From Thermoproteota archaeon (GTDB lineage: Archaea; Korarchaeota; JAOZGF01; JAOZFZ01), in the NCBI GenBank assembly GCA_027492035.1, contig JAOZFT010000001.1, positions 43,458 to 107,457 on the forward strand: a stretch of 64,000 nt of DNA, read 5' to 3'. This document shows positions 11,053-42,900 of this stretch, one piece after another; position 1 is the stretch's first letter; each line of letters begins with the position of its first letter. The notes below the pieces were generated by a model. The model saw only the letters and a program-made list of their open reading frames with translations, did not search any database and was not told where the DNA came from. The position numbers were made by a program, and so were the translations under genes.

Positions 11053-13131
11053 TTAACAAGTGCACTGCAGAAGGGACAGTAACCCTGCTGCTTTCTTTTG
11101 AGCAGGTGGTGGGTAAGTGGAGGAAATAGGTGTTTGAGGCTTAAAACCTCTCTTACGCAAAAGATATACAGCAATAATAACAGCTACTACCCCAACTATA
11201 AGAATTAATGTGAATGAAGGTGCTTCGTAAGGGGATGGTGAAGGTGAAGCAGTAAAGGAGGGTTTTGGGCTTTGATAAGTGGGGGTTGAAGTTGGCGTGG
11301 GAAATGATGGTGGAGAGGGGGAAGGGACTGAAGGGGATGGAGTTAAAGTTGGGGTAGGAGAGGGAGTTGGTGAAGGAGATGAAACCGGTACTGCAGTTTC
11401 TGGGTAAGTGTATACTTCCGTTAACTGGTCGTTAGATGATACTTCATCATCTCCATCAACATCTTCCCATTCAACCACCAAATACTGGGCTGGTTTAGGA
11501 TTTTGGGCAAGTTTCCAAAAGTTATTCCTTAGATATTGGAGGGCTGCATCTGTACCTTGTTTAGTTATCCCCTCGATTAAAATAGAGGGGCTGTCGGATT
11601 TAACTTGAGCAGTGAATGCAATTATGCCATAATCCCTTTTTCCAACTTGGGAAGGATTTATTGAACCTCGAAATTCACCAATTTTAATTGTGTCACTTGT
11701 TAGGGTGATATTAAATATTTTGTTCAGTTTTGCTGTGGCAGGGTTATTTGAGGGGTTACCGATCACGTAACTATTAGGTTCCGGTTTATCCGTATATTTA
11801 ACAGTTCCCTTAATTTTGTTTGCGAAGTCTAAAGCTTGTTTTTTGTTTGGGGAATTTACACCTATGATTATCGTGGGTTGTGGTTTAAGGTTTCCTAATG
11901 ATTTAGAGTCAACAGAGTGCCATTTATTCAATGTTTTTTCTGCCTCGCTTAAGCATTCACTCCATTTACCGTTCAGGTAAAGGTTTTCAACTGAGGAAAC
12001 AGCGCTTGAAACCCAGTTCAAATTCAACTTATTACTTCTTTCCTTAAGTAAGTCTAGAGCTGAAAGAGCTTCACCTCTTTCAGGGTCTATTTTACTAAGC
12101 ATTTCTTTCCAGTTTGAAGATGATAAGGCAAGATTCCTTAATTCATCAAAGGCTTGGTAAATGTCAAACCCCTTTTCCTGTCTCAGTTCTTCATAGATTT
12201 CGTAGATGGTTTTTTGCGGAGGAGCCTCTAAAATAAGTTTCCAAAAGGTTTGAAGGATGCCTCTACCATATTTCTTGTCAATATAGTAAAGGAGGGTGTA
12301 ACCGACAGAGTAAATGTCTAAAGCTGCGCCTTTGTAGTAAAAGTTGTGAAGGTAATGTTTGGGATATGTCTCAAACCAGTACTGTGAATTGTAGTCTACA
12401 TTTATTGTTTCACCACTTGCTTTCTTGTAGTAAGAGTTGGGGTTTCGGAACATTTGGTAAGCCAGTTTAAAGTGTTCTTCTTCAGGGTTGATGCCGCATT
12501 TAACTTGTACCTCATCATCCTGAAAGAAAAGGTCGCATCTTATCGCTTTCTCAAATTGATTTGTTTCCCTTAAAAGGTTTAGTGAGACATACTCCGCAGA
12601 GGCTTCATCAACCCATAAACCAGTCCAGAAATTCTGCTGACTCCAAAGGGTAGTATCATAAAAATAGGAGTGAACTGCTTCATGAAGAACAGTTTGCTGA
12701 TGATCAAGGAAAAGTTCATAGTTATGTAAAACGATGTTTTTCTCTGCGGAGCGGATAGTATAAGCACCGCCTACAAGCCAATAAGTGCCAATTGATTCGA
12801 AAACAACCTGAACTTCACCTCTGTACCTAGGAGGAGTACCGATAAAGTCTTTCATGTAAGGAAACAATTGATTCAAGAAATTAGTGTAGTTTTCGCCTTG
12901 AGCCCGCATATTCACAGGAAAGTGTAGATATGGTTCAAGTTCAGGATGATATTTCTTAATCCATTCCCTACATGCAACAATAGACGAGGCAGTTTGAGGG
13001 AATTTATTAACAAAGATGATTTCAGGATTTTGGGCATGTATTGAGGGAACAGGAGTAATTAACAGGATCAACAATATTGTAAATGTATAGGGAAAAATTT
13101 TTCTTCTTTCCATTTTTTTTCCATCTTTCAA
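11053..13131 (-). CDS. secreted, membrane-anchored zinc metallopeptidase (gluzincin-like) with Pro/Ser/Thr linker; C-terminal zinc ribbon out of frame
   Basis: Signal peptide; HEAVH plus downstream DEASAEY; PST linker; one C-terminal TM helix followed by RKR; +1-frame CPFC...CTNCG tail ending at 11007. Confidence 0.8.
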   Translation of the reverse strand: MKDGKKMERRKIFPYTFTILLILLITPVPSIHAQNPEIIFVNKFPQTASSIVACREWIKKYHPELEPYLHFPVNMRAQGENYTNFLNQLFPYMKDFIGTPPRYRGEVQVVFESIGTYWLVGGAYTIRSAEKNIVLHNYELFLDHQQTVLHEAVHSYFYDTTLWSQQNFWTGLWVDEASAEYVSLNLLRETNQFEKAIRCDLFFQDDEVQVKCGINPEEEHFKLAYQMFRNPNSYYKKASGETINVDYNSQYWFETYPKHYLHNFYYKGAALDIYSVGYTLLYYIDKKYGRGILQTFWKLILEAPPQKTIYEIYEELRQEKGFDIYQAFDELRNLALSSSNWKEMLSKIDPERGEALSALDLLKERSNKLNLNWVSSAVSSVENLYLNGKWSECLSEAEKTLNKWHSVDSKSLGNLKPQPTIIIGVNSPNKKQALDFANKIKGTVKYTDKPEPNSYVIGNPSNNPATAKLNKIFNITLTSDTIKIGEFRGSINPSQVGKRDYGIIAFTAQVKSDSPSILIEGITKQGTDAALQYLRNNFWKLAQNPKPAQYLVVEWEDVDGDDEVSSNDQLTEVYTYPETAVPVSSPSPTPSPTPTLTPSPSVPSPSPPSFPTPTSTPTYQSPKPSFTASPSPSPYEAPSFTLILIVGVVAVIIAVYLLRKRGFKPQTPISSTYPPPAQKKAAGLLSLLQCTC
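11215..11400 (-). repeat. low-complexity Pro/Ser/Thr linker coding region
   Basis: SSPSPTPSPTPTLTPSPSVPSPSPPSFPTPTSTPT, typical glycosylated stalk of archaeal surface proteins. Confidence 0.8.
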
Positions 13132-14638: not shown

Positions 14639-15151
14639 TTAAGTAAAAGATTGAGAAATTTTAATCAATACATCATCTTGGTTGACGAATGCACCTTCCC
14701 TCACCATTACTTCGGTAATCACTCCCTCAACCGGGGAACGAATTTCATTTTCCATTTTCATTGATTCAATAATCAAAAGCAGTTCACCCCGAGCTACTTT
14801 TCCTCTATTCTTCACTTTTAAAGAAACAACTTTACCAGCCATTGGAGCCTTAACAATCACTTCCCCCTTTTCTCCCCTCTTCCCAATCTTTAATTCCTTA
14901 ACTGAAACAAGATGTTTAACCCCGTACTCTTCTACTAAATACACTCCTTCCTCTATTTCTTTAACGTTTACATAAAAGGGTTTGTTCTTTTGAGCAGTCT
15001 TAACTTGGACGTAGTTTCTGTTTTGCGGAGAAATTTGAAACCTTTCTTCTTTTTCGTTAATTACCAGCTTCACCGAATCTTCTAGGCTTAAATTTTCCTT
15101 TTTCACCCTGAACTTTTTCCCATCCACTGTGACTTCGAATTCCTTAACCAT
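14639..15151 (-). CDS. accB: biotin carboxyl carrier protein
   Basis: APMAGKV...ESMKMENEI biotinylation motif; GGTGA RBS. Confidence 0.92.
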   Translation of the reverse strand: MVKEFEVTVDGKKFRVKKENLSLEDSVKLVINEKEERFQISPQNRNYVQVKTAQKNKPFYVNVKEIEEGVYLVEEYGVKHLVSVKELKIGKRGEKGEVIVKAPMAGKVVSLKVKNRGKVARGELLLIIESMKMENEIRSPVEGVITEVMVREGAFVNQDDVLIKISQSFT

Positions 15152-16686
15152 TTAATCACCGAAAAGTGTTGATTAGCGTTAATTAATTCCCTCCTTCCCT
15201 GAATCAACCATCCATTGGAAGCCTTCGTTTCTCCTATCAAGTATTCGGTTTTAGTTTTTCTACCTGTTCTTAAATGGTAGTTTAGTGCTGCCGCTATTAA
15301 TGGGGAGCATTCGTCAATTCTTTTTTTAAAGAGGCTGCTTTTGTTTTCGTTTATGAATTGAGTATGGGTTTCTCCCTTGATAAATTTTTTATTTCTGACT
15401 AGGTTTCTAAAGAAAGGAATATTGGTTTTGACACCCGTGATTTCGAATTCTTCCAAGGCGTTACGCATTCTTTTAATTGTTTCCTCCCTGTTTCTTCCCC
15501 AAGTGATCAATTTAACTAATAAAGCGTCATAAAATGGAGAAACTGTGAAGCCTGGGTAAACTGCACTCTCAATTCTCAACCATCCCCCGCATGGAAACCT
15601 TAAACTTTCAATTTTTCCAGATGAAGGAGCAAAATCCCTTTCAGGATCTTCGGCGTAGATTCTGCATTCCATAGCATGCCCATTTAGTATCAATTTTTCT
15701 TGTTTTAAGTTTATTTCCTCTCCATAAGCTATTTTTATTTGTTCCTTAACTATATCTACGCCTGTAACCATTTCAGTGATAGGGTGTTCAACTTGTATAC
15801 GGGTATTTGCTTCTAAAAAATAGAAGCTGCCCTCTTCATCTCTTAAAAACTCTATCGTGCAGACGTTATCATAATTTGCCTCTTTAACAAGTTTCACAGC
15901 ATCTGAACAGATTTTTCTCCTCACTTCATCATCAACAACTGGTGAGGGGGTTTCCTCCAATAGTTTCTGATGCCTTCTTTGAATAGAACACTCCCTTTCA
16001 AACAAATGAATAACGTTACCGTGTTTATCGCTTAAAATCTGAACTTCGACGTGTCTGGGCCTACTTAGTTTTTTTTCAAGGTATAAGGTGGAGTTTCCAA
16101 AGGCTTTCAAAGCTTCCATTTTAGCTGATTCAAAAACATTAGCCAGTTCCCTTTTGTTTTTAATTAACCTCATACCTCTCCCGCCTCCTCCTCCTGAAGC
16201 TTTAAGGAGCACTGGATACCCTATTTTATCTGCCTCCTCCACTGCCTCGCTTAATTCCTTCACTGGTTTAAGGCTTCCAGGAATAATTGACCCCCCAATT
16301 TTTTCCATCATTTGTCTGGCGTTTATTTTATCCCCTAACTTTTCTAAGGCTTCAGGGTTTGAACCAATAAACGTTATCCCTTCTTCTTCACATCTTTTTG
16401 CAAAGAAGGCGTTTTCAGCCAAGAAGCCGTAACCGGGGTGAATAGCTTCTGAACCTGTCTCTTTACAAACTTTAATTATTTTTTCAATGTTGAGGTAGCT
16501 TTCGCTGGGTTTAGCTTCCCCAATTAAGTACGCTTCATCTGCAAATTTCACATGTAGAGAGTTCAGGTCCACTGTAGAGTAAATGGCAACTGTTTTTATT
16601 CCTAATTCTTTACAGGCTCTAATCACTCTTAGAGCTATTTCCCCTCTATTAGCAACTAAAACTTTCTTAAACAAGGAGCAACACAC
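15103..16686 (-). CDS. accC: biotin carboxylase
   Basis: ANRGEIA, HPGYGFLAEN, GGGGRG, RECSIQRRHQK and NTRIQVEH motifs. Confidence 0.96.
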   Translation of the reverse strand: MCCSLFKKVLVANRGEIALRVIRACKELGIKTVAIYSTVDLNSLHVKFADEAYLIGEAKPSESYLNIEKIIKVCKETGSEAIHPGYGFLAENAFFAKRCEEEGITFIGSNPEALEKLGDKINARQMMEKIGGSIIPGSLKPVKELSEAVEEADKIGYPVLLKASGGGGGRGMRLIKNKRELANVFESAKMEALKAFGNSTLYLEKKLSRPRHVEVQILSDKHGNVIHLFERECSIQRRHQKLLEETPSPVVDDEVRRKICSDAVKLVKEANYDNVCTIEFLRDEEGSFYFLEANTRIQVEHPITEMVTGVDIVKEQIKIAYGEEINLKQEKLILNGHAMECRIYAEDPERDFAPSSGKIESLRFPCGGWLRIESAVYPGFTVSPFYDALLVKLITWGRNREETIKRMRNALEEFEITGVKTNIPFFRNLVRNKKFIKGETHTQFINENKSSLFKKRIDECSPLIAAALNYHLRTGRKTKTEYLIGETKASNGWLIQGRRELINANQHFSVIKWLRNSKSQWMGKSSG

Positions 16687-16697
16687 CTTGAAACAGT

Positions 16698-18245
16698 TTA
16701 AAGGGGAATATTACAGTGTTTTTTAGGGGGCCTTCTCTCCCTTTTATTCCTTAAAATTTCGAGGAATTTGATCAAAGCAGGCCTTGTTTCAGCTGGGTCT
16801 ATTACGTCATCAATATACCCTAACCTGGCTGCCACGTAAGGGTTAGCGAATTCTTTCCTGTACTCTGAAAGAAGTTTCTCCCTGTATGTTTCAGGGTCAG
16901 AAGCTTTAGCTAATTCTTTTCTGAAAATAATGTTTATAGCTCCACTTGGACCCATTACTGCTATTTCTGCACTTGGCCAAGCCAGGTTAATATCTGCACC
17001 TACATGTTTACTGTTTAAGACATCGTAAGCTCCGCCATATGCCTTTCTCACAATAACAGTCATTCGAGGCACTGTTGCTTCGCAGAAAGCAAATAAAAGC
17101 TTTGAACCATGTTTAATTATTCCTCCATGTTCCTGCGCCGTACCTGGAAGGAAACCTGGAACATCAACAAACACAATGAGAGGGATATTAAATGCGTCAC
17201 AGAACCTTACAAACCTAGCTCCCTTTATTGAAGCATTTATGTCCAATGCACCAGCCAGGTGGTTAGGTTGATTTGCAACTATCCCTACAGAGTAACCGTT
17301 TAACCGAGCAAACCCTGTAATTATGTTTTTAGCCCAGTGTTTATGAACTTCCAAAAACTTGCCTTCATCAATTACCCTCCTAATTATTTCTTTCATGTCA
17401 TAAGGTTTATAAGGGTCTTCAGGCACAATCACTCTTAATTCTTCGTCTCTTCTAGCAGGGTTATCTTTAGGTTTAGCCCTTGGCGGGTCTTCCATGTTGT
17501 TGTTGGGAATGTAACTTAGTAACTCCCTCACTATTCTAAAAGCCTCTTCTTCATTTTCGGCCAAGAAATGGGCAACACCACTTTTCACATTATGAACTTC
17601 AGCTCCCCCTAATTCTTCAAAAGTTATTTCTTCACCTGTTACTGCTTTAATAACGTTAGGGCCTGTTATAAACATATAACTTGTTCCTTTCACCATTATG
17701 ATGAAATCTGTAAGTGCAGGTGAATAAACAGCTCCACCGGCACATGGTCCAAGCACAACAGATATTTGAGGAATAACCCCGGAAGCCAAGGTATTCCTGA
17801 AGAAAATATAAGCATAACCAGCTAAACTTAAAACCCCCTCCTGTATCCTCGCACCCCCTGAATCATTTAGACCAATAAAGGGTGCACCCACCTTCATAGC
17901 TAAATCCATAACTTTACAGATTTTCTTAGCATGCATTTCACCCAGTGACCCACCGAAAACGGTGAAGTCTTGGGAAAAAAGAAAAACAAGTCTTCCACTT
18001 ATTTTACCGTAACCTGTAACTACACCGTCTCCAAAAATTTTCTTCTCTCCCATCCCAAATTCTGATATTCTGTGCGTAACGAAAGGGTCAATCTCTGTAA
18101 ATGTCCCTTCATCAACTAAAAGGTTTATTCTTTCACGTGCAGTTAACTTCCCCCTTTTATGTTGCTCTTCAATTTTCTTTTTCCCTCCTCCAAGTTTTGC
18201 CTTCTCTTTCAGCTGTTTTAATTCTTCAATTTTGTCCTTTTCCAT
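16698..18245 (-). CDS. pccB: acyl-CoA carboxylase carboxyltransferase (PccB/MmdA-like)
   Basis: [29 protein letters not shown] and RKAYGGAY motifs; start set at MEKDK after a GAGGGG RBS. Confidence 0.93.
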
Positions 18246-19038
18246 TAACAATCGACCCCTCAAATACTTCAACAACTTCTCCATTCAATTTTTTAATCAA
18301 TAAACCACCTTTTGGACTTAAAGTTAAAGCTAAGCCTTCAATTACTTCCCTGTTACGAATTTTTACTTTTCTCCCAAAGACAGGAGAGAGTTCTCTATAA
18401 AGCTTTAATAATTTATCCTTCCCCCCCTTTTCTAGACTAAAGTAAAGAGAATCGATCTTTTCTAAGAGTTTTTTACATAGATTAAAAAAATCAATTTCGT
18501 GTTTTAATTCACTATAAAGAGTTGTTGCGGTTTTTCTTAAAATATGAGGGAAAGACTCGACAGGAAAGTTTATGTTTAAACCTATTCCTCCAATTGCAGC
18601 TTCCAAAATGTTTCCTGAGAATTTATTTTCAACTAGGACACCACAAACCTTCTTTTCTTCAATTAGGACGTCATTAGGCCATTTAATGGCTGTTTTTACG
18701 CCTAAAAACTCCTTTAAAACCAGGGATACAGCAATGCAAAGTAGATATTGGATAAAGTAAATTGTTTCAGGGTTACGGGGGGAGAAGATAATGGAAAGCC
18801 ATAACCCCCCCTTCGGAGAAAAAAAATTTTTTCCTTTCCTCCCCCTCCCTTGGGTTTGAGTATCAGCCAAAACAACTAGCCCCTCCTTAAACCCTTTCTT
18901 TAATAGAAAGTAGGCCACGTCATTGGTTGAAGAAACTTTTTCAAACCAAAAAATATTTGACCCTACAAATTTTGTTTTCAACAATTTTTTCAACTTACTT
19001 CCTCTAACAAAGGCTTCATTAAATGAAGGCTTAAACAT
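18226..19038 (-). CDS. birA: biotin-protein ligase (no N-terminal HTH)
   Basis: [19 protein letters not shown] and KKVCGVL motifs. Confidence 0.95.
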
Positions 19039-19083: not shown

Positions 19084-19881
19084 TTAAGAGAAGAATATAA
19101 GTGGAATGAATAAAATCAGCCAAAACAAAGTAGGTAATGGGAGGCCAGGCATTACTCCTTTCTTTTCAGCTTCTTTCCTTAAAAGAGCAAGCCCTACATA
19201 AAAAGATATTAACGGAAGCGGAGCGAGTGGAAGCTGCAGATATCTAAATGGAAGGGAAGCCATTAAAGAGTACGAAATAATGTCACCCATCCCTATTTGA
19301 ACCTCACCTAGATTTACAAGGAACAAATTAAGATACCCCCTTTCACTCCTCTCGGATTCCTCACCCAATTTTCCTGCACTTAAAAACTTCTTTAATGGAC
19401 CTTTATAGACAGACCACAAATCATAAACAGCAAGTAAAACAACGAAGATTAAGGGAAAGAAGCTGCCGAAAGTTATAATTAAAGCCGCTGAAAAACCTCC
19501 CCCACAAATTATTTTCAAAAGATTAGAATAGAAACCTTTAACCATCAAGAAAGTAATAAAAGCAGCCGCTGAAAACATAGGAAGGAGAAGATTTAAGGAA
19601 AAAACTATATCGCTGTAGATTAGAAGGGAGAGGGTAGCGAAATTCATAAAGAAGAGACCGAGCACCCCCATTGCTTTTATTAGAAGTGCCAGTTTCCACT
19701 TTGCAAGAAAAAGAATTAAATAAGTGACTAAGGTTATTCCAATGATTAAGGTAATGGAGTAAGAAAAGGATTCAGTTGTAGATAAAGGCAGAATGTATTC
19801 TTCTCTGTATCTTAACAGGGAAAAAATGGAGACAAGCTGCGAAATAGCTATTAAAAAGGATTCTTTCAAGAAATTTTTCAA
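19084..19881 (-). CDS. presenilin-like GxGD intramembrane aspartyl protease (peptidase A22)
   Basis: Multi-TM; LAVYDLWSVY, IGMGD and MPGLP motifs; TTG start after GGAAGGTG (ORF is open to 19911). Confidence 0.85.
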   Translation of the reverse strand: MKNFLKESFLIAISQLVSIFSLLRYREEYILPLSTTESFSYSITLIIGITLVTYLILFLAKWKLALLIKAMGVLGLFFMNFATLSLLIYSDIVFSLNLLLPMFSAAAFITFLMVKGFYSNLLKIICGGGFSAALIITFGSFFPLIFVVLLAVYDLWSVYKGPLKKFLSAGKLGEESERSERGYLNLFLVNLGEVQIGMGDIISYSLMASLPFRYLQLPLAPLPLISFYVGLALLRKEAEKKGVMPGLPLPTLFWLILFIPLIFFS

Positions 19882-20004
19882 AGAAAAACACCTTCCAATA
19901 TTTCTCACCAACTTTTTAAAGTTAACTTGTGGAAAAGGGAAAAAGTTTGGGAAGAAAGTTGAAGAGAGACTATTTTCACGAAAATAATTTCACACATATA
20001 ATTT

Positions 20005-20649
20005 TCACTGCATCCACTTTTTAACAATTGCGACAGTTTCTCTAAACACTTCATCTATTGATTTGTTGCCATCTACAATTTCTAGAATGCCCTTTTCTCG
20101 GTAGTAGTTAATTAGAGGCTCTGTTTTTTTCCTGTACTCCATAATTCTTTTTTTAACTATCTCCTCTTTATCATCTTCCCTTTGAAAAAGTTTACTCCCG
20201 CACTTGTTGCAGATTTCATCCTTTTTAGGTGGATTAAAAAGTAAATGATAAACCATTCCACATTTAGGACATTGTCTTCGATAACTTATCCTTTTAATTA
20301 TTTCTTTTTCGTCAACGTTCAAGTAAATAGCCAAATCAAGTTTTTCAGGTTTAAGAATTTCCTCTAAAGCCTCAGCTTGAACAGTTGTCCTTGGATACCC
20401 ATCTAAAATGAACCCTTCACAATCCCTTCTCCTCAATTTCTTTTTTAGAAGTTCAATAACTATTTTATTTGGCACAAGCAAGCCTTTGTTAAGGTAACTT
20501 TTAACTTTATTGCCTAGTTCACTTTCTTCTCTTGAAACCTCCCTTATTATGTCACCCATAACTATGTGAGGCACACCAAGTAAGGCACTCAATTTTTCTC
20601 CCTGAGTTCCTTTACCTGAACCAGGAGGGCCGAGTAAAACAATTTTCAT
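20005..20649 (-). CDS. adk: adenylate kinase, bacterial type with Zn-LID
   Basis: GPPGSGKGTQ, GFILDGYPRT, CPKC...CNKC and QREDD motifs. Confidence 0.95.
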   Translation of the reverse strand: MKIVLLGPPGSGKGTQGEKLSALLGVPHIVMGDIIREVSREESELGNKVKSYLNKGLLVPNKIVIELLKKKLRRRDCEGFILDGYPRTTVQAEALEEILKPEKLDLAIYLNVDEKEIIKRISYRRQCPKCGMVYHLLFNPPKKDEICNKCGSKLFQREDDKEEIVKKRIMEYRKKTEPLINYYREKGILEIVDGNKSIDEVFRETVAIVKKWMQ

Positions 20650-20691
20650 CTTTAACACCCTCTAAAGTGTTTAGGTTTAAACTTTTTAAAG

Positions 20692-21036
20692 TTACCTTCC
20701 CTTTCCGGTTAAGGTTATACCCAGTGGAACCAGGGCCAAAACAAAAAAGAGAACATGCAACATTTCGTAATATATAGGGTACTTAGCAACTACATAAGCT
20801 GTGAAAGCCACCACATTCAGCAACGAATAAAGGATAAGTATAGCTTCTGAAAAGAAGCGGCTCTTGATTTTTAATGTGAAGGAGAGAAGTAAAGCAATAA
20901 AGAAAGTGAAGACACAGTAAATGTTAATAAGGAAATGGTGGAAGTTCAAGATGTAAAAAGGGGTTGGGGAATAAAGTATAGCTGAAATAAATGCAGAAAC
21001 AACATTTAATGAAACAGATAAACTGTATTTATCCAT
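20692..21036 (-). CDS. small integral membrane protein (about 4 TM)
   Basis: GGAGG RBS; hydrophobic; upstream of adk on the same strand. Confidence 0.65.
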   Translation of the reverse strand: MDKYSLSVSLNVVSAFISAILYSPTPFYILNFHHFLINIYCVFTFFIALLLSFTLKIKSRFFSEAILILYSLLNVVAFTAYVVAKYPIYYEMLHVLFFVLALVPLGITLTGKGR

Positions 21037-21105
21037 TTCCTAAATATTACCTCCACAACAAAAAACAATTTATTTTAAAAGATAGAGCCTACCTCTTCAA
21101 ACGGT

Positions 21106-21126
21106 ACCAATGCTCTTATATATAAA
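21106..21126. promoter_or_regulatory. TATA box in the divergent promoter region
   Basis: CTTATATATAAAG, near-symmetric, between the divergent genes at 21036 and 21213. Confidence 0.45.
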
Positions 21127-21212
21127 GTACCTCCCTTTAAAAGTGAATTGGAAGTCTGGTTTTTAAAGGGATGCAACTTCTTAGTAGGGAGGTGAAGAAG
21201 GGGGGTAAAAAC

Positions 21213-22013
21213 ATGTTTTTTGATTTAACCATCCCAATTGTTATCTTCATTTTCTCTGTTACAATATCCTACATTTATCCTTCATTCGAAAAAAGGGTGG
21301 AGAAATTATTTGCTGGAGAAAGGGAACTATCCTGCAAAGAAATTGCTTTGGTGCTGCTAATAATTTCAATAAATTTAGTTGTTATGTTTTTTCTACCTGA
21401 AAATTTTTTACCTTACTTAATTCTTTTTGCAACATGTGTATTTCTTTTTTCGGCGTTCTATATCCTCACAAACAAGGAGGCAATCTCTGTTGCACTTGTA
21501 ATCTTCTTTTTAGCCTCTTATTTCTTCCTGAAGGGGAACATTATAACCTTTAACATGTTCAGCTTTATAATAGCTTTTTCAGCTTCACTAATGTTTAACA
21601 CTCTCTTTACTTGGCGGACTGTTTGGTTATTTTTAACCGTATTAACAAGTTTAGATGTTTTTTTTGTATTCTGCACAAACATAATGGTTACTGTAGCTGA
21701 AAGAGCGTTAGAGTTATCTCTTCCACTACTTATAAAATTACCTTCCTTCCCCCTTTTCCTGAACCGAACAATAGGTTTAGGTTTAGGAGATTTACTTGTG
21801 GCTTCTTTGATTGCAGTCCAAACAGCTAAAGAGATAAACAAGAAAGCTGGGTTAATGAGCAGTATAGGTATGTCTTTAAGCACTGTAGTTATGGGGATTG
21901 TGTTGTTAAACTTTAAATCCGCTTTACCAGCAACAGTGTTTCTTTACAGTGGAGGAGCGCTGGTTGCTGTAATTTATTATTTAAAAGGGAAAATGGAGGA
22001 AGGGAGAGTTTAA
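21213..22013 (+). CDS. signal-peptide-peptidase-like GxGD intramembrane aspartyl protease (A22B-like)
   Basis: LDVFFVFCTNIMVTVA, GLGLGD and LPATVFL motifs; multi-TM; ATG after a GGGGGT RBS. Confidence 0.85.
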   Translation: MFFDLTIPIVIFIFSVTISYIYPSFEKRVEKLFAGERELSCKEIALVLLIISINLVVMFFLPENFLPYLILFATCVFLFSAFYILTNKEAISVALVIFFLASYFFLKGNIITFNMFSFIIAFSASLMFNTLFTWRTVWLFLTVLTSLDVFFVFCTNIMVTVAERALELSLPLLIKLPSFPLFLNRTIGLGLGDLLVASLIAVQTAKEINKKAGLMSSIGMSLSTVVMGIVLLNFKSALPATVFLYSGGALVAVIYYLKGKMEEGRV

Positions 22014-22738
22014 ACTTTAACTCCTTTGACAAGAAAGAAGAGAAAAAGCCTCGACTTCACAATCTCCGGCTTAAAATAGACTGTAAAAAATTTGAGAAAA
22101 GTTTTAAAGTTCCACATTTCTTGAAAAGTAGCATAAAATAAACTCCATGGAGAAACATCTCTAAAATTCATCGAAATAAATTTGCTTATCGCCGGTACTA
22201 AATATCGAATGTATAAGGAGGAAAGTGGGGTTATGCATTCATTAAGAGGCTTAAAAACATCCAAAATAACTACGGTTCCGTTTTCTTTCAGAACTCTATG
22301 TATTGCTTGCAGTACACGTAGCTTATTCAATGAATCCCTGAAACTGTAAGAAGCGAAGACAACATCGAAAGAACTGTTTGGGAAAGGAAGTTCCTCAAAG
22401 AAACCCTTAATAAACTTTTTATTCACACCTTTATAGGGTAAAAGCTTATTCTTAGCTTCTTTAAGCATTCTATCTGAAGCGTCTAAACAGAAAAGTTCCC
22501 CTCTCCCCAGTTTCTTTGCAATAATTACTGATGAAACGCCTGGGCCGCAACCTAAGTCTAAAACTTTGAAACCAGGTTGAATACCGGCTAGTTCAACTGC
22601 TTGTTTACGCATTCGAGGGCCTAAACCAAAAGAAATAACTTTGTTAACTTTTTCATAGTGAGGAATCGCTTTTTCAAGACAACCAATTACTTCTTCAATG
22701 CTGAAACCGTGTTTTTCATGTTTTCTCTGCAACTGCAA
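22010..22738 (-). CDS. class I SAM methyltransferase, UbiE/MenG family
   Basis: YEKVNKVISFG, VLDLGCGPG and LPFPNSSFD motifs. Confidence 0.85.
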   Translation of the reverse strand: MQLQRKHEKHGFSIEEVIGCLEKAIPHYEKVNKVISFGLGPRMRKQAVELAGIQPGFKVLDLGCGPGVSSVIIAKKLGRGELFCLDASDRMLKEAKNKLLPYKGVNKKFIKGFFEELPFPNSSFDVVFASYSFRDSLNKLRVLQAIHRVLKENGTVVILDVFKPLNECITPLSSLYIRYLVPAISKFISMNFRDVSPWSLFYATFQEMWNFKTFLKFFTVYFKPEIVKSRLFLFFLVKGVKV

Positions 22739-23078
22739 ACGTTCCCCCCTTAGTTAAGCCTTCAACTAAAAAGTAAACACCTAAAGCTGAAATAATGAAA
22801 CTGAGAATAATTGTGATTTTCCAGAGGTAAATAAAAAGAGTGAGAATCAAGGAAAAGGCTCCACCTGATAAAAGAATTAGGATCTTACCTCTCAAAAAGT
22901 TTTTCTCTTTACTGCCAAAGTTAAGAAATGAAACAGTTAAAGCTGAAAGTAGACCTGTTAAAACATAAACCGGTTTATCTTCGTTACTTATCCAAAGAAA
23001 AAGGGAGGAAACCCAGAAAACAAGGAAAAATCCTCCAAGCCAAGTTTCAAACCATTCCTCTTCACTTAACCCGCCCAT
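22716..23078 (-). CDS. small membrane protein (about 4 TM)
   Basis: Hydrophobic ORF inside the larB-methyltransferase run, overlapping the next start. Confidence 0.65.
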   Translation of the reverse strand: MGGLSEEEWFETWLGGFFLVFWVSSLFLWISNEDKPVYVLTGLLSALTVSFLNFGSKEKNFLRGKILILLSGGAFSLILTLFIYLWKITIILSFIISALGVYFLVEGLTKGGTFAVAEKT

Positions 23079-23110
23079 TTCTGAAACACCAATTCAATAG
23101 GTAAAGTAAC

Positions 23111-23869
23111 TTATTTTCTGGCGATTAAAGCAGCTATAACTCCTGCATTCACTCCATTATCGATGTTAACCACAGCTACGCCTAAAGAACATGACTGAAG
23201 CATTGTAGATAAAGCTGCTTCACCTTTCCCTCTGAAACCGTAACCAACACTTGTAGGTAAACCTATCACAGGTACATCAACCAAACTAGCTACAACAGAC
23301 GGCAGAGCCCCTTCCATTCCCGCTGCAGCAACTATTACATGAACTCCCTCCTTCACCATTTCCTTCAATGCTGAGAGCAACCTGAAAAAACTAGAGAGCC
23401 CTACATCATACTTTTTAATTGTTTCACATCCCATTTCTTCTGCAACCACTCTTGCTTCTTCAGCGGCTTTTATGTCAGCTGTTCCAGCAGCTAAAACACC
23501 AACTTTCCCCCTCTTTTCAACTTTAAAGTCTCCATGTTTAATAACTAGGATTTCTGCTTCTTCAAAAAAGGAGGAGAGATAAGGTTTATGTATCTCTTTC
23601 ATTATTTCTTCAGCTTTATCTCTGCCTAAACCCGAGACAATCAAGTGTTTTTTCACTTTAATTGTTTCAAGAATTATTTTTTTTAAATGACGCCACTTTT
23701 TAGGTTTAGCAAAAATCACTTCCGGTTTGTTCACCCTTTTCTCTCTTGAAACGTCAATTACAGCTAATTCCTCTATTTCCTTGACAGCGTTTAGTTTTAG
23801 TAATTTCTCGGCTTCATGAACTCCTATTTCTCCATTCTTAAATTTCTTCAAAATTTCTCGCAGATACAT
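23111..23869 (-). CDS. larB: nickel-pincer cofactor biosynthesis protein LarB
   Basis: PEVIFA, AGTAD, AGMEGALPS, PTSVGYG, MLQSC and NIDNG motifs. Confidence 0.93.
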   Translation of the reverse strand: MYLREILKKFKNGEIGVHEAEKLLKLNAVKEIEELAVIDVSREKRVNKPEVIFAKPKKWRHLKKIILETIKVKKHLIVSGLGRDKAEEIMKEIHKPYLSSFFEEAEILVIKHGDFKVEKRGKVGVLAAGTADIKAAEEARVVAEEMGCETIKKYDVGLSSFFRLLSALKEMVKEGVHVIVAAAGMEGALPSVVASLVDVPVIGLPTSVGYGFRGKGEAALSTMLQSCSLGVAVVNIDNGVNAGVIAALIARK

Positions 23870-23888
23870 CCCCCTAAGTTCCCCTGAT

Positions 23889-25166
23889 TCATTTCTTACC
23901 TTTAAAGAGACTTAATTCTCCATTAAACTCCTCCACTAATTTTTTGTAAACTAAAATTTTTATGTTGAGGATTGAAGTGTTCATTTTTTCAGCTAACCTT
24001 TTCAGATCTTCGAATTCAGGTTTAACTCTAACTACTTCCCCCCTTTCATTCCTTGCAACTTTCACCCTTACTTCAGCTTCAACCCCTTTAAAATTTATTT
24101 TTAATTTTAAAGTGTCCCTCCTTAATACAAACCTTTCACAGGATGAAACTCTTACACCTAGGGTACCTGTTTCCCGCATTATCAGTTCAGAGAAATAAGC
24201 AGCTTTATCCTCTTCAACAACAGCCTTTAAAACGTAGCCAGGCCTGTTTTTCTTGGTTAACATCGGAAGTAAACAAAGATCAAGCAACCCCTCCCTCGAA
24301 ACCTTCCTAAACAAGTTACCAAGCACTTCACCAGAAACATCATCTATGTTAGTTTCCAATAGCACCTTTCTGTCAACAAATAAAGACCTTATTTCCTCCC
24401 CAAAAATAATCCTTAAAACATTCGGCACCTCCTCAAAGTCCATTTGTCCAGCTCCATACCCCACCTTAAAGGGTTTAATTAATGGATAAGAAGGTGAAAC
24501 CTTTTCAACTAAATTGACAAGGATAGATGCACCTGTCGGGGTGGCTAATTCACGTTGAACAAATCCACCATGAAAAGGGTAATTCCTACTTGTCAATATT
24601 TCAACTGTTGCAGGGGCTGGGACAGGGTAGATCCCATGATGAACCTTTACTGAGCCTCTGCCGACAGCTACAGGTGTACCGAACACCTTACCTTCTAAAA
24701 TATTTAAGTCATCTAAAGCTGTGAAAGTTCCTACAATATCTAAAACCGTGTCAACGCCTCCCATTTCATGCAGCTCAACTTCACCCATTTTTTTGCCATG
24801 AACAATTGACTCAGCCTCAAGTAAGGTTTTTAAGGTTTCAACAGCTAAAACTTTCGCTTTACCAGATAAATTTGCTTCATCCAATGCTTCTTTAACCTTT
24901 CCAACCATTTCAATTCCTTTACTTCCCTCCCCTTCCTCTTCCAGGATTTTGATACTTAATTTCTTAGCCTTGATCCCCTTCTTATCTGTTTTTTCAACAT
25001 TAATCTTTACTTTTTGACACTCTTTAAACAAGGAAGCTGTGTTCTTCATAGCTTCAATAACCTTTCCTTCATCAGCTCCAAGGTCTAGTAAAGCTGAAAT
25101 AAACATATCTCCTGACACACCGGCTAAGCTGCAGTCTACAATTGTTAAATATTTTTTAGTCAGCAA
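23889..25166 (-). CDS. larC: nickel insertase LarC
   Basis: GVSGDM, HEMGGVD, HGIYPVPAPAT, TPTGA, ETNIDD, KKNRPG, ETGTLGVR and KPEFED; single unbroken ORF. Confidence 0.93.
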   Translation of the reverse strand: MLTKKYLTIVDCSLAGVSGDMFISALLDLGADEGKVIEAMKNTASLFKECQKVKINVEKTDKKGIKAKKLSIKILEEEGEGSKGIEMVGKVKEALDEANLSGKAKVLAVETLKTLLEAESIVHGKKMGEVELHEMGGVDTVLDIVGTFTALDDLNILEGKVFGTPVAVGRGSVKVHHGIYPVPAPATVEILTSRNYPFHGGFVQRELATPTGASILVNLVEKVSPSYPLIKPFKVGYGAGQMDFEEVPNVLRIIFGEEIRSLFVDRKVLLETNIDDVSGEVLGNLFRKVSREGLLDLCLLPMLTKKNRPGYVLKAVVEEDKAAYFSELIMRETGTLGVRVSSCERFVLRRDTLKLKINFKGVEAEVRVKVARNERGEVVRVKPEFEDLKRLAEKMNTSILNIKILVYKKLVEEFNGELSLFKGKK

Positions 25167-25574: not shown

Positions 25575-26648
25575 TTAATGAAACAAAAACTTATTTGATA
25601 CGTATTTCCCAGTTATGGGGACCCTTTCCCCACATCTCGGGCATTTATTTCCTTTACTTAAATTATACCTCAAAATTTTGACGTTCCACCTTTTTATTAA
25701 CAATTCCCCACAGTTTGGGCAGTAGGTGCTTTCATATTTATGTCCAGGAACGTTTCCAAGGTAAGGAAATTTCACCCCCTCCCTTTTAGCTATTTTGTAA
25801 GCTTTCTCTAAAAACTTGATAGAAGTCGGTGGCTGCTTAAACTTGTAAGCTGGGAAATAACGGGTGAAGTGAAGAGGAGTTTCAGACCCTGCAAACCTTA
25901 AATGTTTCTCAACCAAACCAATTATCTTTTCTTCTTTATCGTTCAAGCCTGTCACAACTAAATGTACAACCTCTACATGTAACCCTTTCCTTTTAGCTTC
26001 CTTAATGTTTCTCCACACAAAATCAACATTCACCCCTCCACAGTATTTTCTATACACCTCCTCATCCCCCTTTACATCTATCTTTATTCCATTTAGGCCG
26101 GAGTCAGCTAACATGTTTAACGCTTCTAAACTCATGTAACCATTTGACACAAACGTGTTATAAAGTTTATTTTCTCTAGCTAGTTTAAATGTTTCAATAG
26201 AGGCCTCAAAAAACAAAGTTGGTTCCTGGAAACTGACACACAAACCTTGATCCCCCCTCAACAATGCTTCCTTCACTATTTCACGTGGAGGCAGGAAAAA
26301 GGCTTTCAGGGGATTAGGAAGTGTAGCTGATAACTGAAAGTTTTGGCACCAAGGACATTTGAAATTGCAGCTCCAAGTGGAAACAGTTAAAGCTTTTGAA
26401 CCAGGCCAAAAGTGAAAGAAAGGTTTTATTTCTATGGGTCTACTTTCAATTACACTTAAGTCTCCGTAAACTAAAGTGTAAAGTTTACCTTCAACGTTTA
26501 CTCTTGTTCCACAAAAACCTGTTTGTTTTTCTTCCAGAACACATTTCCTTTCGCAAAGTAAACATTGAACCTTACTGCTTCTAAGCCTTCTATAAAGCAA
26601 AGCCTCCCTTACTGTAGAGGATTTTCGGAACTGTTCAGGAGTGAACAA
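25575..26648 (-). CDS. AmmeMemoRadiSam-type radical SAM enzyme
   Basis: CLLCERKC, PIEIKPFFHFWPG, CNFKCPWCQN, HFTRYFPAY and TYCPNCG motifs. Confidence 0.88.
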   Translation of the reverse strand: MFTPEQFRKSSTVREALLYRRLRSSKVQCLLCERKCVLEEKQTGFCGTRVNVEGKLYTLVYGDLSVIESRPIEIKPFFHFWPGSKALTVSTWSCNFKCPWCQNFQLSATLPNPLKAFFLPPREIVKEALLRGDQGLCVSFQEPTLFFEASIETFKLARENKLYNTFVSNGYMSLEALNMLADSGLNGIKIDVKGDEEVYRKYCGGVNVDFVWRNIKEAKRKGLHVEVVHLVVTGLNDKEEKIIGLVEKHLRFAGSETPLHFTRYFPAYKFKQPPTSIKFLEKAYKIAKREGVKFPYLGNVPGHKYESTYCPNCGELLIKRWNVKILRYNLSKGNKCPRCGERVPITGKYVSNKFLFH

Positions 26649-26783
26649 ACACAGTAACCCCCTTTAAAACCTGAAAGGATTTGTAGTGAAGAAATTGAAG
26701 CCTCCTAAAAAGGTTGAAAGTATCTCTCACTTATATTTTTCTAAACGAACCCTTTCTAAAAATTTTAAAAGAGGAAACATAGT

Positions 26784-27938
26784 TTAAAAAGTTGTTCCCT
26801 GTTTTTTAGCAGCTTTCTCAAATTCTGACATGTCCCTTAACCCTAAAAGATGCAAATTACCCACATTAACCCTGCTTAAATGTTTTTTAGCGGCTAAATA
26901 ACATTCCACAGCTTGTTCCAAGGGGGTAACGGGTAAATCTCTCATTAAGTACTCTGGATAGAAAATCAGTAAGCTGTAAGGGATGTCTTCATCTATATCC
27001 GCAATAAATTGAGCTATTTTTTCAACCTCTAATTCATCTACATAACCTGGGACAAGCAAGGTAGTTGCGTTTAAAACAGGGTTTCCCTTTCTTTCAAAAT
27101 AAAACTTTTCACCTACCAATTTAAAGTTGGAGTAAGCTTTACTGTTAGAGACGCCACTTAAAGCTAAGCTTAAGTTTGAATCAAAAACCTTCAAATCAAA
27201 TTTAATATTCCCACCACTAACTAACGAAAGTTCAGCAGCTTCTTCAACCAACTTACTATTTCCGCAGCCGTTCCATTCAAAACATACTCTTAAAACTCTG
27301 TCCCTGATTTGTTTCAAAACTTTCCTTGAAACATTTAAGGCGAAAGGAAGCTGAGGCTCAGGTGATCCACCAAAGAAACAAATACAAGTGACTTTACGGT
27401 TTCTGTTCACCACCTCCAGAAATTTTTCAGCTGTAACAAGTCCCCCCCGGCTTAAAATTTTATGTGTCCAGTTTTGACAGAATAAACAATCGAAATTGCA
27501 GCCGTAAAAGAAAACAGCTAAGTTGTAGTACCCGTATTCAGGTCCCTCCTTTACTGCATACTTCGGGAACCCTAAACCCGTAGCTGCTGGACAGTAATAA
27601 GCTGCGCAGCAGTTTGTTACGTGTGGATCTAGATACCAATCCAGTAATCCCTTCTCAGAACTCACCATACTTTCTAACTTGTTTCTTTTATTCTTCCTTA
27701 AACCGCAGAACCCACTTTCTCCATTTGCAATGGAGCAGTAGTTTGAACAAATTGAACATTTAACTCCTTCCCCAAACTTAGGTGGTTTAACCGGTAAACC
27801 ATACTTTACTCTTTCTTTATGAGCTTCCTCAACAAATTTAGAGGCTTCACTCCAGTTGTTTCTGATACAATCTATACAAACTTTCAGTGTTTCCGAAATA
27901 AGGGGGGATTCTCTTCCGCAAATAACGCATCTTTTCAA
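26784..27938 (-). CDS. radical SAM protein (PFL-activase-like) with N-terminal Cys clusters
   Basis: CVICG..CIDC, CSICSNYC, TNCCAAYYCP and CNFDCLFCQN motifs. Confidence 0.88.
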   Translation of the reverse strand: MKRCVICGRESPLISETLKVCIDCIRNNWSEASKFVEEAHKERVKYGLPVKPPKFGEGVKCSICSNYCSIANGESGFCGLRKNKRNKLESMVSSEKGLLDWYLDPHVTNCCAAYYCPAATGLGFPKYAVKEGPEYGYYNLAVFFYGCNFDCLFCQNWTHKILSRGGLVTAEKFLEVVNRNRKVTCICFFGGSPEPQLPFALNVSRKVLKQIRDRVLRVCFEWNGCGNSKLVEEAAELSLVSGGNIKFDLKVFDSNLSLALSGVSNSKAYSNFKLVGEKFYFERKGNPVLNATTLLVPGYVDELEVEKIAQFIADIDEDIPYSLLIFYPEYLMRDLPVTPLEQAVECYLAAKKHLSRVNVGNLHLLGLRDMSEFEKAAKKQGTTF

Positions 27939-40947: not shown

Positions 40948-41946
40948 TTAATAAAGTTTGATAGTAGAGGAGAGAATGTCCAAAACTTCTTTCCTTTCCT
41001 GGGAAGTCAATTCTCGAGGGAAATTGAATAAGGGGCCGCTTGGTTTTTCATTATAGAAAGGTCTGTTACAGTGGGGGCAGCCCGATGTTTTAAAAGGCTC
41101 ACCAACCATTATTTCCTTTAACACTTCCTGTTCAGCAACTAAAATTTCATCTATGGCACCGTTTTTGTTCCATTTAATACTGAACTTTTCTCCATACCCT
41201 TTATTTAGTAAATAGTTTACTACTTGAAGTTTTCGGTAAGAGTACAGGTTTGGTGGATAGTTGAGGCCCATTTTTGTCCCTTTCACCGGTGTGAAAGCGA
41301 AAAGCCCCACTTTAACTCTTAAATTATTCATTTTACGGAGGAAAGAAACAACATCTTTCTCTCTCTCACCTAAACCTACAATTAAATGTGTATATACTTT
41401 CCCTTCACCGAAAACGTTCACGGCGTCTTTTAAAGCGTGGAAGTACGATTCCCAGGTGTATCCAGGCTTGATTTTATTAAAAATTTCTTTCTTCGCAGCA
41501 TCTAAAGGAAAACAAATGATATCTACTCCTAAATCTCTATATAAGCCAATTTCTTTTCTTCTAAGTGGAAAAACACTTAAAGAAATAGGTTTAAACTTAG
41601 GTAAGGCAGAAACCAGTCCCTTTAAGTATTCTTTAACCCCTTTAAAAACAGTTGTTTGGACACATACCCTCTTATATTTTGCTTTTCTTGTTTTTAGGGC
41701 TGAAACAAGTTTTTTTAAGGTGAAAACTGGCCACTTAATTCTTGACAAGCGACTTAAGTCACAGGAACTTGTTCTAGCTTGAGCACAGAAAGCACAATCC
41801 ATCAAACACTTACTGCCACTGTAACTCATTAAATAAATAGTTGTTGGGTAAACATCCATTTTCACATTTAAGAGACCTAACAAACCAGCTGAACCAATAG
41901 AAACCCTTACTCTAAAATTATCCAGGCCACTCAAATCTCCTACCAT
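40948..41946 (-). CDS. lipS2: radical SAM, archaeal-type lipoyl synthase subunit LipS2-like
   Basis: CLMDCAFCAQ and the C-terminal TSGCPHCNRP motif described for LipS2; paired with lipS1. Confidence 0.8.
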   Translation of the reverse strand: MVGDLSGLDNFRVRVSIGSAGLLGLLNVKMDVYPTTIYLMSYSGSKCLMDCAFCAQARTSSCDLSRLSRIKWPVFTLKKLVSALKTRKAKYKRVCVQTTVFKGVKEYLKGLVSALPKFKPISLSVFPLRRKEIGLYRDLGVDIICFPLDAAKKEIFNKIKPGYTWESYFHALKDAVNVFGEGKVYTHLIVGLGEREKDVVSFLRKMNNLRVKVGLFAFTPVKGTKMGLNYPPNLYSYRKLQVVNYLLNKGYGEKFSIKWNKNGAIDEILVAEQEVLKEIMVGEPFKTSGCPHCNRPFYNEKPSGPLFNFPRELTSQERKEVLDILSSTIKLY

Positions 41947-41988
41947 CACACCTCCCCTCTTCCTGAAACTGGGTAGGGAAAAAAGCAA

Positions 41989-42900
41989 TTAGAGGGCACA
42001 ACATTTCTTTTCAATCCTTAACTGCAACCCCTTCTTCCTAACGAAATCAAGAGTTTCTTTCTTTGGAAGAACAATTCCGTCTACACCACTTTTAATGGCT
42101 AAAACGTCAAACTTGTTCCTTTCAAACCAGGGGCGCATACATCCCAAATTTATTATTTTATCTGGGAACATTAACCTAGCCTTAGCTACAATGTAAGCCA
42201 CCTCCGTAGGTTCGGGAGGTTTAAGGTTCTGGTAAAATGTTCCTTTTGTAGGAACAAAAACTGTGATCACTATTTTTTGAGGATCCGCTTTTTTAAGAAT
42301 GTTTAAGGCTTTAACTTCGCCCCTTAATTTTCCTTTATAAAGGCCGACACATACGTGTGGAACAACCTCTTTCACACCAGCCCTCTTTAGGTTCTTAATT
42401 ACTTCTAAATAATCCTGTGGGGATTTGTTTAACCCATAAACCTCCTTTATTGTCTCTTCATCCCCTACAAAGTCGATAGAGACGGTATCAATTCCTGCTT
42501 CAACTATTTTTTCAGCATCTTTTTCGTTTACAAACCCGCAGTGTGCATTATAAACTAAATTAAATTTCTTTTTAGCTTTGAACAAAACCTTGCTAAATTT
42601 GTCGATAGGAACAATAAATCTCTGATCCAGTCCCCCACTTATAAGGAAACCTTCAGCTCCTTTGCTGTGAAGATGTTTCAACTTTTTGTAGAGTTCATTT
42701 TGGGAACGTACCTTAGTCATACCCTTCAAATAAATCCTTCCACAATGTTTGCAGTTAAGTGAACAGTTGGTTCCAGTTAAGGAAATAGAGGGAAAAAACC
42801 TACCCAGGTAGTAAATTGTTAAATTAGTGTTCCTACTCCTTTTCACCTTAAAAGCTTTCTCCAGTAACTTGTCTAAATTTTCAACCGGTGACATATACAT
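41989..42900 (-). CDS. lipS1: radical SAM, archaeal-type lipoyl synthase subunit LipS1-like
   Basis: CSLNCKHC, GCMRP and C-terminal CC motifs described for LipS1. Confidence 0.8.
   Translation of the reverse strand: MYMSPVENLDKLLEKAFKVKRSRNTNLTIYYLGRFFPSISLTGTNCSLNCKHCGRIYLKGMTKVRSQNELYKKLKHLHSKGAEGFLISGGLDQRFIVPIDKFSKVLFKAKKKFNLVYNAHCGFVNEKDAEKIVEAGIDTVSIDFVGDEETIKEVYGLNKSPQDYLEVIKNLKRAGVKEVVPHVCVGLYKGKLRGEVKALNILKKADPQKIVITVFVPTKGTFYQNLKPPEPTEVAYIVAKARLMFPDKIINLGCMRPWFERNKFDVLAIKSGVDGIVLPKKETLDFVRKKGLQLRIEKKCCAL

Follow-up and report, generated by a model that had tools for sequence, protein, structure and literature searches.

Do two neighbouring genes for intramembrane proteases on an archaeal chromosome form one proteolytic system, or are they separate members of a known superfamily that have come to lie side by side? 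The question arises from a divergent locus of a Thermoproteota archaeon (Korarchaeota), located in a stretch of 64,000 nucleotides (assembly GCA_027492035.1, contig JAOZFT010000001.1, positions 43,458 to 107,457 of the forward strand) that is called the window below and supplies all coordinates. Its minus strand carries the genes of a small membrane protein, of adenylate kinase (adk) and of a first GxGD intramembrane aspartyl protease (protein A), and its plus strand that of a second (protein B). An earlier interpretation, the sequence-only reading, had taken A for presenilin-like and B for a relative of signal peptide peptidase (SPP), and had proposed an undescribed, clustered system. The analysis presented here supports the two assignments and points to two separate enzymes.

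The divergent locus

The genes of the locus and the motifs of the two proteases in their transmembrane (TM) helices are the following.

19084-19911, minus strand: longest open reading frame (ORF) of protein A, 275 amino acids
19084-19881, minus strand: protein A from the TTG at 19881, 265 amino acids, assigned as a presenilin-type GxGD intramembrane aspartyl protease
20005-20658, minus strand: adk, long-type adenylate kinase with lid domain
20692-21036, minus strand: small membrane ORF, 114 amino acids, four hydrophobic segments, orphan
21171-22013, plus strand: longest ORF of protein B, 280 amino acids
21213-22013, plus strand: protein B from the ATG at 21213, 266 amino acids, assigned as an SPP-type GxGD intramembrane aspartyl protease
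19420-19425, minus strand: YD of protein A, residues 163-164, with D164 as putative first catalytic aspartate in TM6
19282-19293, minus strand: GMGD of protein A, residues 207-210, with D210 as putative second catalytic aspartate in TM7; IISYS comes next
19141-19149, minus strand: PGL of protein A, residues 255-257, PAL-type motif at the start of TM9
21651-21656, plus strand: LD of protein B, residues 161-162, with D162 as putative first catalytic aspartate in TM6, then VFFVFCTNIMVTVAE
21780-21791, plus strand: GLGD of protein B, residues 204-207, with D207 as putative second catalytic aspartate in TM7
21927-21935, plus strand: PAT of protein B, residues 253-255, PAL-type motif at the start of TM9

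The four ORFs and the six motifs lie where the sequence-only reading had placed them, according to the ORF list and to script-checked coordinates. Residue numbers of protein A refer to the 275-residue ORF and the motif coordinates of protein B to the 280-residue ORF; D162, G204, G206 and D207 of the latter are D148, G190, G192 and D193 in the 266-residue numbering. The true start of protein A is probably the TTG at 19881 (residue 11), because a 99%-identical database protein begins there and GGAAGGTG is found just upstream. That of protein B is probably the ATG at 21213 (residue 15), where most aligned relatives begin.

Two branches of the A22 superfamily

Relatives of protein A, collected by word-indexed searches, numbered 4 and then 16, and the 16 sequences were aligned. 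D164 is invariant in this family (16/16), and protein A keeps all the invariant residues (G137, G139, A161, D164, V168, G171 and P172). Around the second aspartate, G207, G209, D210, Y214 and S215 are conserved in at least 90% of the 16 sequences, and PGLP (P255, G256, L257 and P258) is invariant in a 5-sequence alignment of the family. Searched against the sequences of the PDB, the A-family profile finds presenilins PS1 and PS2 at E-values of 3.6e-13 to 5.1e-13 and the archaeal presenilin/SPP homologue (PSH) at 0.24, with SPPL2a not listed; single-sequence searches of the PDB gave nothing useful for A or B. In the motif alignment with PS1, YD falls on YD, the GMGD segment on GLGDFIFYS and PGL on ALPALP. 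Among the family members, 14/16 match PF01080 and 3/16 match PF06550. The Foldseek search with the AlphaFold2 model of protein A is headed by such proteins as well, the top 22 among the matches listed being all PS1, PS2, PSH or SPPL2a.

The family of protein B is larger. An exhaustive profile search yielded 148 representatives at E ≤ 1e-3, 31 of them at ≤ 1e-30, from which 34 sequences were aligned. Invariant in all 34 (266-residue numbering) are the first aspartate D148 with V152 and M158, then G190, G192 and D193 of the GLGD motif, and finally P239 and T241 of PAT, with A240 conserved in at least 90%. The first aspartate falls on the YD of PSH and SPPL2a. Among the PDB sequences, the best match of the B-family profile is PSH (4.6e-12), ahead of SPPL2a (2.1e-7), PS1 (about 1e-4 to 3e-4) and PS2 (1.1e-3). 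The nine-helix presenilin fold is seen in the AlphaFold2 model of B, which is confident (predicted local distance difference test score, pLDDT, 94.5; predicted TM-score, pTM, 0.90). Its best Foldseek match by E-value is SPPL2a (9k93; E 9.9e-7, TM-score normalised on the query, TMq, 0.71), with TMq up to 0.73 for PS1 and 0.59-0.65 for PSH. Of the 34 members, 13 match PF06550, weakly, and 3 match PF04258.

Pfam annotation was also examined in a wider sample. From the 147 representatives beyond P0005, which is nearly identical to the protein of the window, 89 of 220-999 amino acids were scanned with Pfam, fragments and one protein of 2970 amino acids being dropped: 38 have no Pfam match (E up to 0.001), 31 match PF04258 best, 17 match PF06550 best (11 strongly) and three match a cohesin domain only. 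In the Atlas, protein B falls in a cluster of 476 members (score 0.97) named ‘hypothetical protein’, without a common Pfam family, 73% archaeal and with Bathyarchaeota as commonest phylum. Independently of how the locus is interpreted, the B family stands as an unrecognised archaeal SPP clade of hundreds of members, mostly annotated ‘hypothetical’ and some of them with extracellular domains. A family model for this clade, mostly unmatched by Pfam (38/89), would improve archaeal annotation. Motifs and architectures vary among the relatives. YD is combined with PAT in the short PF04258-type relatives and with PAL in the eukaryote-like P0147. In three B-type proteins (P0048, P0098 and P0151), the protease body is preceded by a hydrophobic leader at the N-terminus and by a cohesin domain with N-x-S/T sites; SPPL2 has a luminal domain, which this cohesin domain recalls. 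P0032 has an unassigned N-terminal domain of ∼170 amino acids, and P0041, P0044 and P0054 have two added hydrophobic segments after TM3.

How distant the two proteins are is seen from their direct comparison. BLASTP of A against B gives a best E-value of 6.7, whereas the alignment of the A-family profile with the B-family profile reaches a probability of 96.3% (E 1.5e-9) and places YD on LD, GMGD on GLGD and PGL on PAT. As judged from these alignments, A and B are dissimilar yet homologous, and both belong to the A22 GxGD superfamily. Five hidden Markov models (HMMs) from which the window proteins were left out separate them clearly, with the following scores in bits.

Presenilin-like HMM, 15 database proteins: A 70.7, B -6.8
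Presenilin-like HMM, 77 genome loci: A 100.3, B 10.1
PF06550-type HMM: A 55.2, B 61.8
PF04258-type HMM (28 hits): A 3.3, B 105.0
B-family HMM: A 0.9, B 233.9

Phylogeny gives a similar partition. In a quick tree of 89 rows, the presenilin-like and PF06550 groups are split from the B family and the PF04258 group (SH-aLRT support, the Shimodaira–Hasegawa-like approximate likelihood ratio, of 99). A more careful tree of 53 rows contained a subset of the groups and 13 A-type proteins derived from genome loci, added because the long branch of protein A needed breaking. There, support is 100/100 for the presenilin-like clade including A, 100/99 for the B family including B, 97/95 for the PF04258-type clade and 100/99 for the deep split, in which the B family joins the PF04258-type proteins and A falls on the PF06550 side. 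When A is forced to the side of B and SPP, the log-likelihood drops by 26 units (approximately unbiased, AU, test, p = 0.027).

Collectively, the profile, Pfam, HMM and tree lines agree in classifying A as presenilin-type and B as SPP-type, from different A22 branches. The dissimilarity of the two proteases and their respective likenesses, as described in the sequence-only reading, are thus upheld by family profiles, independent HMMs, the 53-row tree and the AU test.

Predicted membrane orientation

Presenilin and SPP are the textbook case of one fold inserted in two membrane orientations, with type I versus type II helices as substrates. These opposite topologies and their tie to the substrate types are described in the excerpt available of PMC2947513. 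The distribution of lysine and arginine (K+R) was counted in the loops (L) across the family alignments, with helix cores drawn from the models and from hydropathy. Mean counts on the side of the N-terminus, L2, L4, L6 and L8 and on the other side are as follows.

A family: 13.4 versus 0.7, 16/16 in agreement
B family: 3.65 versus 14.7, 34/34 in agreement
PF04258-type hits: 4.7 versus 14.0, 28/28, oriented like B
PF06550-type hits: 12.8 versus 1.7, 11/11, oriented like A

The window proteins follow their families, with 18 versus 3 for A and 5 versus 13 for B. Under the positive-inside rule, the K/R-rich side is cytoplasmic. For protein A this predicts a cytoplasmic N-terminus and TM6-TM7 loop, as in presenilin, and for protein B an N-terminus outside and a lysine-rich C-terminus inside, as in SPP. 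The outside N-terminus of B fits the leader and cohesin domain that precede TM1 in P0048, P0098 and P0151. The sequence-only reading had built its substrate argument on opposite topologies, and this premise agrees with the charge counts (16/16 A-family members predicted N-in, 34/34 B-family members N-out).

Genes and signals around the two proteases

Protein A belongs to a minus-strand run made up of the small membrane gene, adk, A, birA, pccB, accC and biotin carboxyl carrier protein (BCCP), seven genes separated, in this order, by 33, 123, 45, -59, 11 and -49 bp. Directly past protein A, the run continues (14639-19038) with genes for the biotin-protein ligase BirA, a carboxyl transferase, a biotin carboxylase and a biotin carboxyl carrier. 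Short gaps or overlaps between these genes suggest one long transcript that also holds adk and protein A. The adk product matches PF00406 at 4.7e-46 and ADK_lid at 2.3e-17 in Pfam and exceeds the cut-off of the NCBIfam equivalog NF001380 (270.8 bits versus 251); we take this archaeal enzyme to resemble the long bacterial type and not the short archaeal one.

The first gene of the run is that of the small membrane protein. Its 114-residue product displays four hydropathy peaks, belongs to no Pfam or NCBIfam family, has no Atlas match of at least 0.9 (best score 0.89, without family) and has no relative within 80 A-type loci of other archaea, which are described below. A complex prediction combining the A-family alignment, the B-family alignment and the 114-residue protein gave, without controls, scores of 0.00 and 0.00 (mark 0.32), which speaks neither for nor against binding. 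The protein is an orphan, tied to either protease by position alone.

The minus-strand run and gene B are separated by the following region.

21037-21170, 134 bp, to the longest ORF of B, or 21037-21212 to the likely start of B: divergent intergenic region, AT-rich

It contains TTATATATAAAG at 21116-21127 and, on the minus strand, a second AT-rich element, TTTTAAAATAAAT. GGAGGT-type motifs precede both divergent starts. Such elements make divergent promoters between the small membrane gene and protein B plausible. A scan for sigma-70 promoters and terminators, a bacterial model unsuited to archaea, stayed at background (10 sites versus 8.8 expected).

At its other end, gene B meets a minus-strand block (22010-25166). 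A ubiE-type methyltransferase gene is convergent with B and ends 4 bp inside the end of B; upstream of it lie the gene of an orphan four-helix membrane protein of 120 amino acids (22716-23078) without family and two Lar-type genes, one LarB-like with an AIR (aminoimidazole ribonucleotide) carboxylase domain and one LarC-like with a nickel insertion domain.

Conservation of the gene pair

A conserved neighbourhood would favour a functional system. A genome scan seeded with the A family found 243 relatives, from which 80 loci were retained, and their six-frame ORFs were searched with both family HMMs and with the neighbour proteins of the window. These loci comprise ∼60 from Bathyarchaeia, 8 from Aenigmatarchaeota, a few from Thermoproteota and Nitrososphaerota, one from a Methanocella metagenome-assembled genome and three of unstated phylum. 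Flanks on both sides reach at least 3 kb in 57 loci, at least 5 kb in 48 and at least 9 kb in 44. Within the fetched flanks, a B-type gene accompanies the A-type gene in 0/80 loci, the five weak matches of the B HMM falling on the A-type gene itself. Likewise, adk, the small membrane gene, the 120-residue membrane protein gene and birA are each found in 0/80, and a ubiE-like methyltransferase gene occurs in 2/80, several kb away.

What does accompany A-type genes in Bathyarchaeia is a same-strand array, located before them, for tRNA-guanine transglycosylase (45/80 loci), a PHP-domain protein (49/80), a beta-CASP metallo-beta-lactamase (63/80) and archaemetzincin M54 (46/80). Where M54 occurs (47 loci), its distance upstream is at most 200 bp in 46. 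Example coordinates in these loci (L001-L080) are as follows.

L015: 8851-9510
L070: 1843-3252
L072: 6834-7997
L039: 5062-7089

None of the 8 Aenigmatarchaeota loci has the array. The link of A-type genes with archaemetzincin, conserved as it is, holds almost only within Bathyarchaeia and was set aside as lineage synteny. Across phyla, no partner gene is conserved beside A-type genes and none is seen beside A in the window, although no search aimed at nicastrin, APH-1 or PEN-2 was made.

Two separate proteases or one system

The explanation that we regard as quite probable is that the locus holds two separate and probably active A22 proteases, one from each of the two deep branches, brought together most likely by a lineage-specific rearrangement. 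In each enzyme, the TM6 aspartate and the GxGD aspartate of TM7 would activate a water molecule within the bilayer, at a site shaped by the PAL-type motif of TM9, as conserved residues and fold suggest. By analogy with eukaryotic presenilin, A may cut helices with N-out/C-in orientation (type I stubs); by analogy with eukaryotic SPP, B may cut helices with N-in/C-out orientation (type II), for example leftover signal peptides. A would be expressed within a same-strand housekeeping run and B read the opposite way from the shared intergenic region, the two being at most loosely co-expressed. With ∼265 amino acids each and apparently no extra domains, A and B make a compact pair, in one background, for asking whether orientation alone sets substrate choice.

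Several observations weigh against this explanation. Taken singly, neither protein is recognized by the family expected of it: protein A has no PF01080 or PF04258 match at E up to 1, and the same is true of protein B. Scores of A stay under the cut-offs of PF06550 (20 bits, cut-off 23.9) and NF041679 (29.6, cut-off 125), and those of B are lower still (10.6 and 15.5, respectively). The AlphaFold2 model of A is poor (pLDDT 61.8), with a best TMq of 0.46 and a best E-value of 3.8e-4 in Foldseek. The end branch of A is very long, 2.9 in the 89-row tree and 2.33 in the 53-row tree versus medians of 0.72 and 0.8. The 89-row tree left A unplaced, since holding it with the SPP side gave a tree 22.5 log-likelihood units above a short free search (AU p = 0.81), and its position comes only from the 53-row tree with more A-type relatives. 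B, for its part, is not cleanly SPP: its family profile ranks PSH above SPPL2a, and it has LD for YD and PAT for PAL. The orientations are charge-count predictions over self-defined helix cores. The synteny scan covered A-type loci of distant relatives and was made from the A side; its patterns miss A's own motifs (GMGDIISYS and LAVYDLWSVY), and no locus exceeds 41% identity. Close relatives are invisible to such a scan, and the synteny test is therefore incomplete. Finally, the presence of two superfamily members within 3 kb is a priori unlikely by chance; this is an argument only, and it leaves room for a functional link.

Such a link would be a coordinated module, co-expressed from the shared intergenic region and dealing with both substrate orientations, with the 114-residue protein as accessory subunit or substrate. 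It would account for the opposite predicted orientations of A and B, for the single AT-rich region of 134 bp that B and the A-side run both flank, for the place of the small gene at the head of the run with A (gaps of 33 and 123 bp) and for an adjacency that seems improbable by chance. Yet the B-type gene, adk and the small gene are each found in 0/80 other A-type loci, and for this reason a clustered system, as put forward in the sequence-only reading, is unsupported, within a scan that is blind to close relatives and met distant loci only. The role of possible accessory subunit suggested there for the small protein is likewise unsupported, the protein having neither family nor relatives in the 80 loci. 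Moreover, the genes around A (adk, birA and those of the carboxylase) are unrelated housekeeping genes. A coordinated module is thus weakened and appears doubtful. It is also improbable, although conceivable for this particular lineage, that one bidirectional control region governs both proteases, which would clear or process helices of both orientations, with the orphan four-helix protein as lineage-specific partner or substrate.

The distance of A from its relatives suggests another explanation, namely that A is a paralogue in decay or with a new role (for instance as a scaffold without proteolytic activity or an ion-leak channel) and B the sole working protease. The branch of A is the longest in both trees, its model confidence is low, and it is at most 28% identical to any relative in the 53-row tree; in addition, a title cited in the available part of PMC7997004 ascribes dual enzyme and ion channel roles to presenilin-like GxGD proteases. 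Against this, the ORF is intact, all family-invariant residues are kept together with GMGD..YS and PGLP, and the K/R asymmetry (18 versus 3) points to correct insertion in the membrane, which makes loss of proteolysis in A unlikely. Far less credible is a pair of ordinary archaeal PSH (PF06550) paralogues that share one topology, the outcome that the sequence-only reading had set against its own proposal. The sole Pfam and NCBIfam matches of the two window proteins are indeed the weak ones to PF06550 and NF041679, and PSH is the best PDB match of the B-family profile, but these matches lie under curated cut-offs. The PF06550-type HMM is outscored by the presenilin-like HMMs for A and by the PF04258-type HMM for B, a 100/99 branch parts the two proteins in the 53-row tree, and their charge asymmetries are opposite, B differing from 11/11 PF06550-type proteins. 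HMMs, tree and charge patterns therefore contradict a common PSH origin of this kind, and two separate proteases of different type remain the favoured explanation.

Relation to known intramembrane proteases

Presenilin (MEROPS A22A, PF01080; human PS1 in gamma-secretase, 5a63 and 6iyc) resembles protein A in two stretches, YD..GP and GxGD..YS..PALP, which carry the family profile match (E ∼4e-13). Both are N-in with a cytoplasmic TM6-TM7 loop, by prediction for A and, for presenilin, from general knowledge and the accessible part of PMC2947513. They differ in that A has 265 amino acids, a TM6-TM7 loop of ∼27 residues in place of the long cytosolic loop, PGL in place of PAL and, when searched alone, no PF01080 match.

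SPP and its SPPL relatives (MEROPS A22B, PF04258; human SPPL2a, 9k92 and 9k93) resemble protein B in the model match, the grouping with PF04258-type proteins, the N-out/C-in charge pattern and the D-V-x-x-V-F-x-T-x-x-M context past the first aspartate. B differs from them by having LD at the place of YD and PAT at that of PAL, the eukaryotic YD and QPALLY-type motifs being absent from it, by its much shorter length (266 amino acids, without ectodomain) and by a family that forms its own clade (100/99), apart from the PF04258-type clade (97/95).

PSH/MCMJR1 (PF06550, NF041679; 4hyc and 4hyg) has its catalytic motifs in common with A and B and its nine-helix fold in common with the model of B, a fold that A would probably have as well. 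It is like A in charge orientation and side of the tree and like B in the family profile match (4.6e-12). It differs from A by a family profile match of E 0.24 only, and from B by the opposite charge orientation of 11/11 PF06550-type proteins and by its place on the other side of the 100/99 split.

Archaeal members of the superfamily have been reported before. PSH/MCMJR1 is characterised as an archaeal GxGD protease in the available excerpt of PMC2947513. In the portions at hand of PMC4343526, PMC9263693 and PMC8305020, one archaeal A22 class, ‘presenilin/SPP homolog’, is listed, and HVO_1107 (DUF1119) is predicted to be a signal peptide peptidase. A survey of transporters in Asgard archaea (PMC7997004, as far as its text was available) contains eukaryote-like presenilin homologues along with PSH-like ones, and the undescribed status proposed in the sequence-only reading is unsupported. 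Archaeal homologues of presenilin and of SPP are already in print, and A and B are further examples of known protease types. Adjacent, oppositely oriented A22 genes are not described in the literature searched on archaeal presenilins and intramembrane aspartyl proteases (Bathyarchaeota, Asgard, eukaryogenesis). At present, the linkage of A and B lends no support to a new system.

Other features of the window

The rest of the window is ordinary archaeal chromosome. Its GC content is ∼36%, and its other genes include those for Cdc6/Orc1, CLP1, a 2-oxoacid:ferredoxin oxidoreductase, LarB/LarC and ABC transporters. Scans for tRNA genes and for Rfam families at gathering score found none in the 64 kb. 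Large, poorly annotated ORFs are present on the minus strand: one of 692 amino acids (11053-13131) has no Pfam match, one of 598 amino acids (50605-52401) has only a sub-threshold match to baculovirus PEP_C, and one of 740 amino acids (57621-59843) is a DUF3160 protein (1.2e-166). Five radical-SAM (S-adenosylmethionine) genes are scattered in the window (25575-27938, 40948-42900 and 53055-54110), two pairs of them being adjacent.

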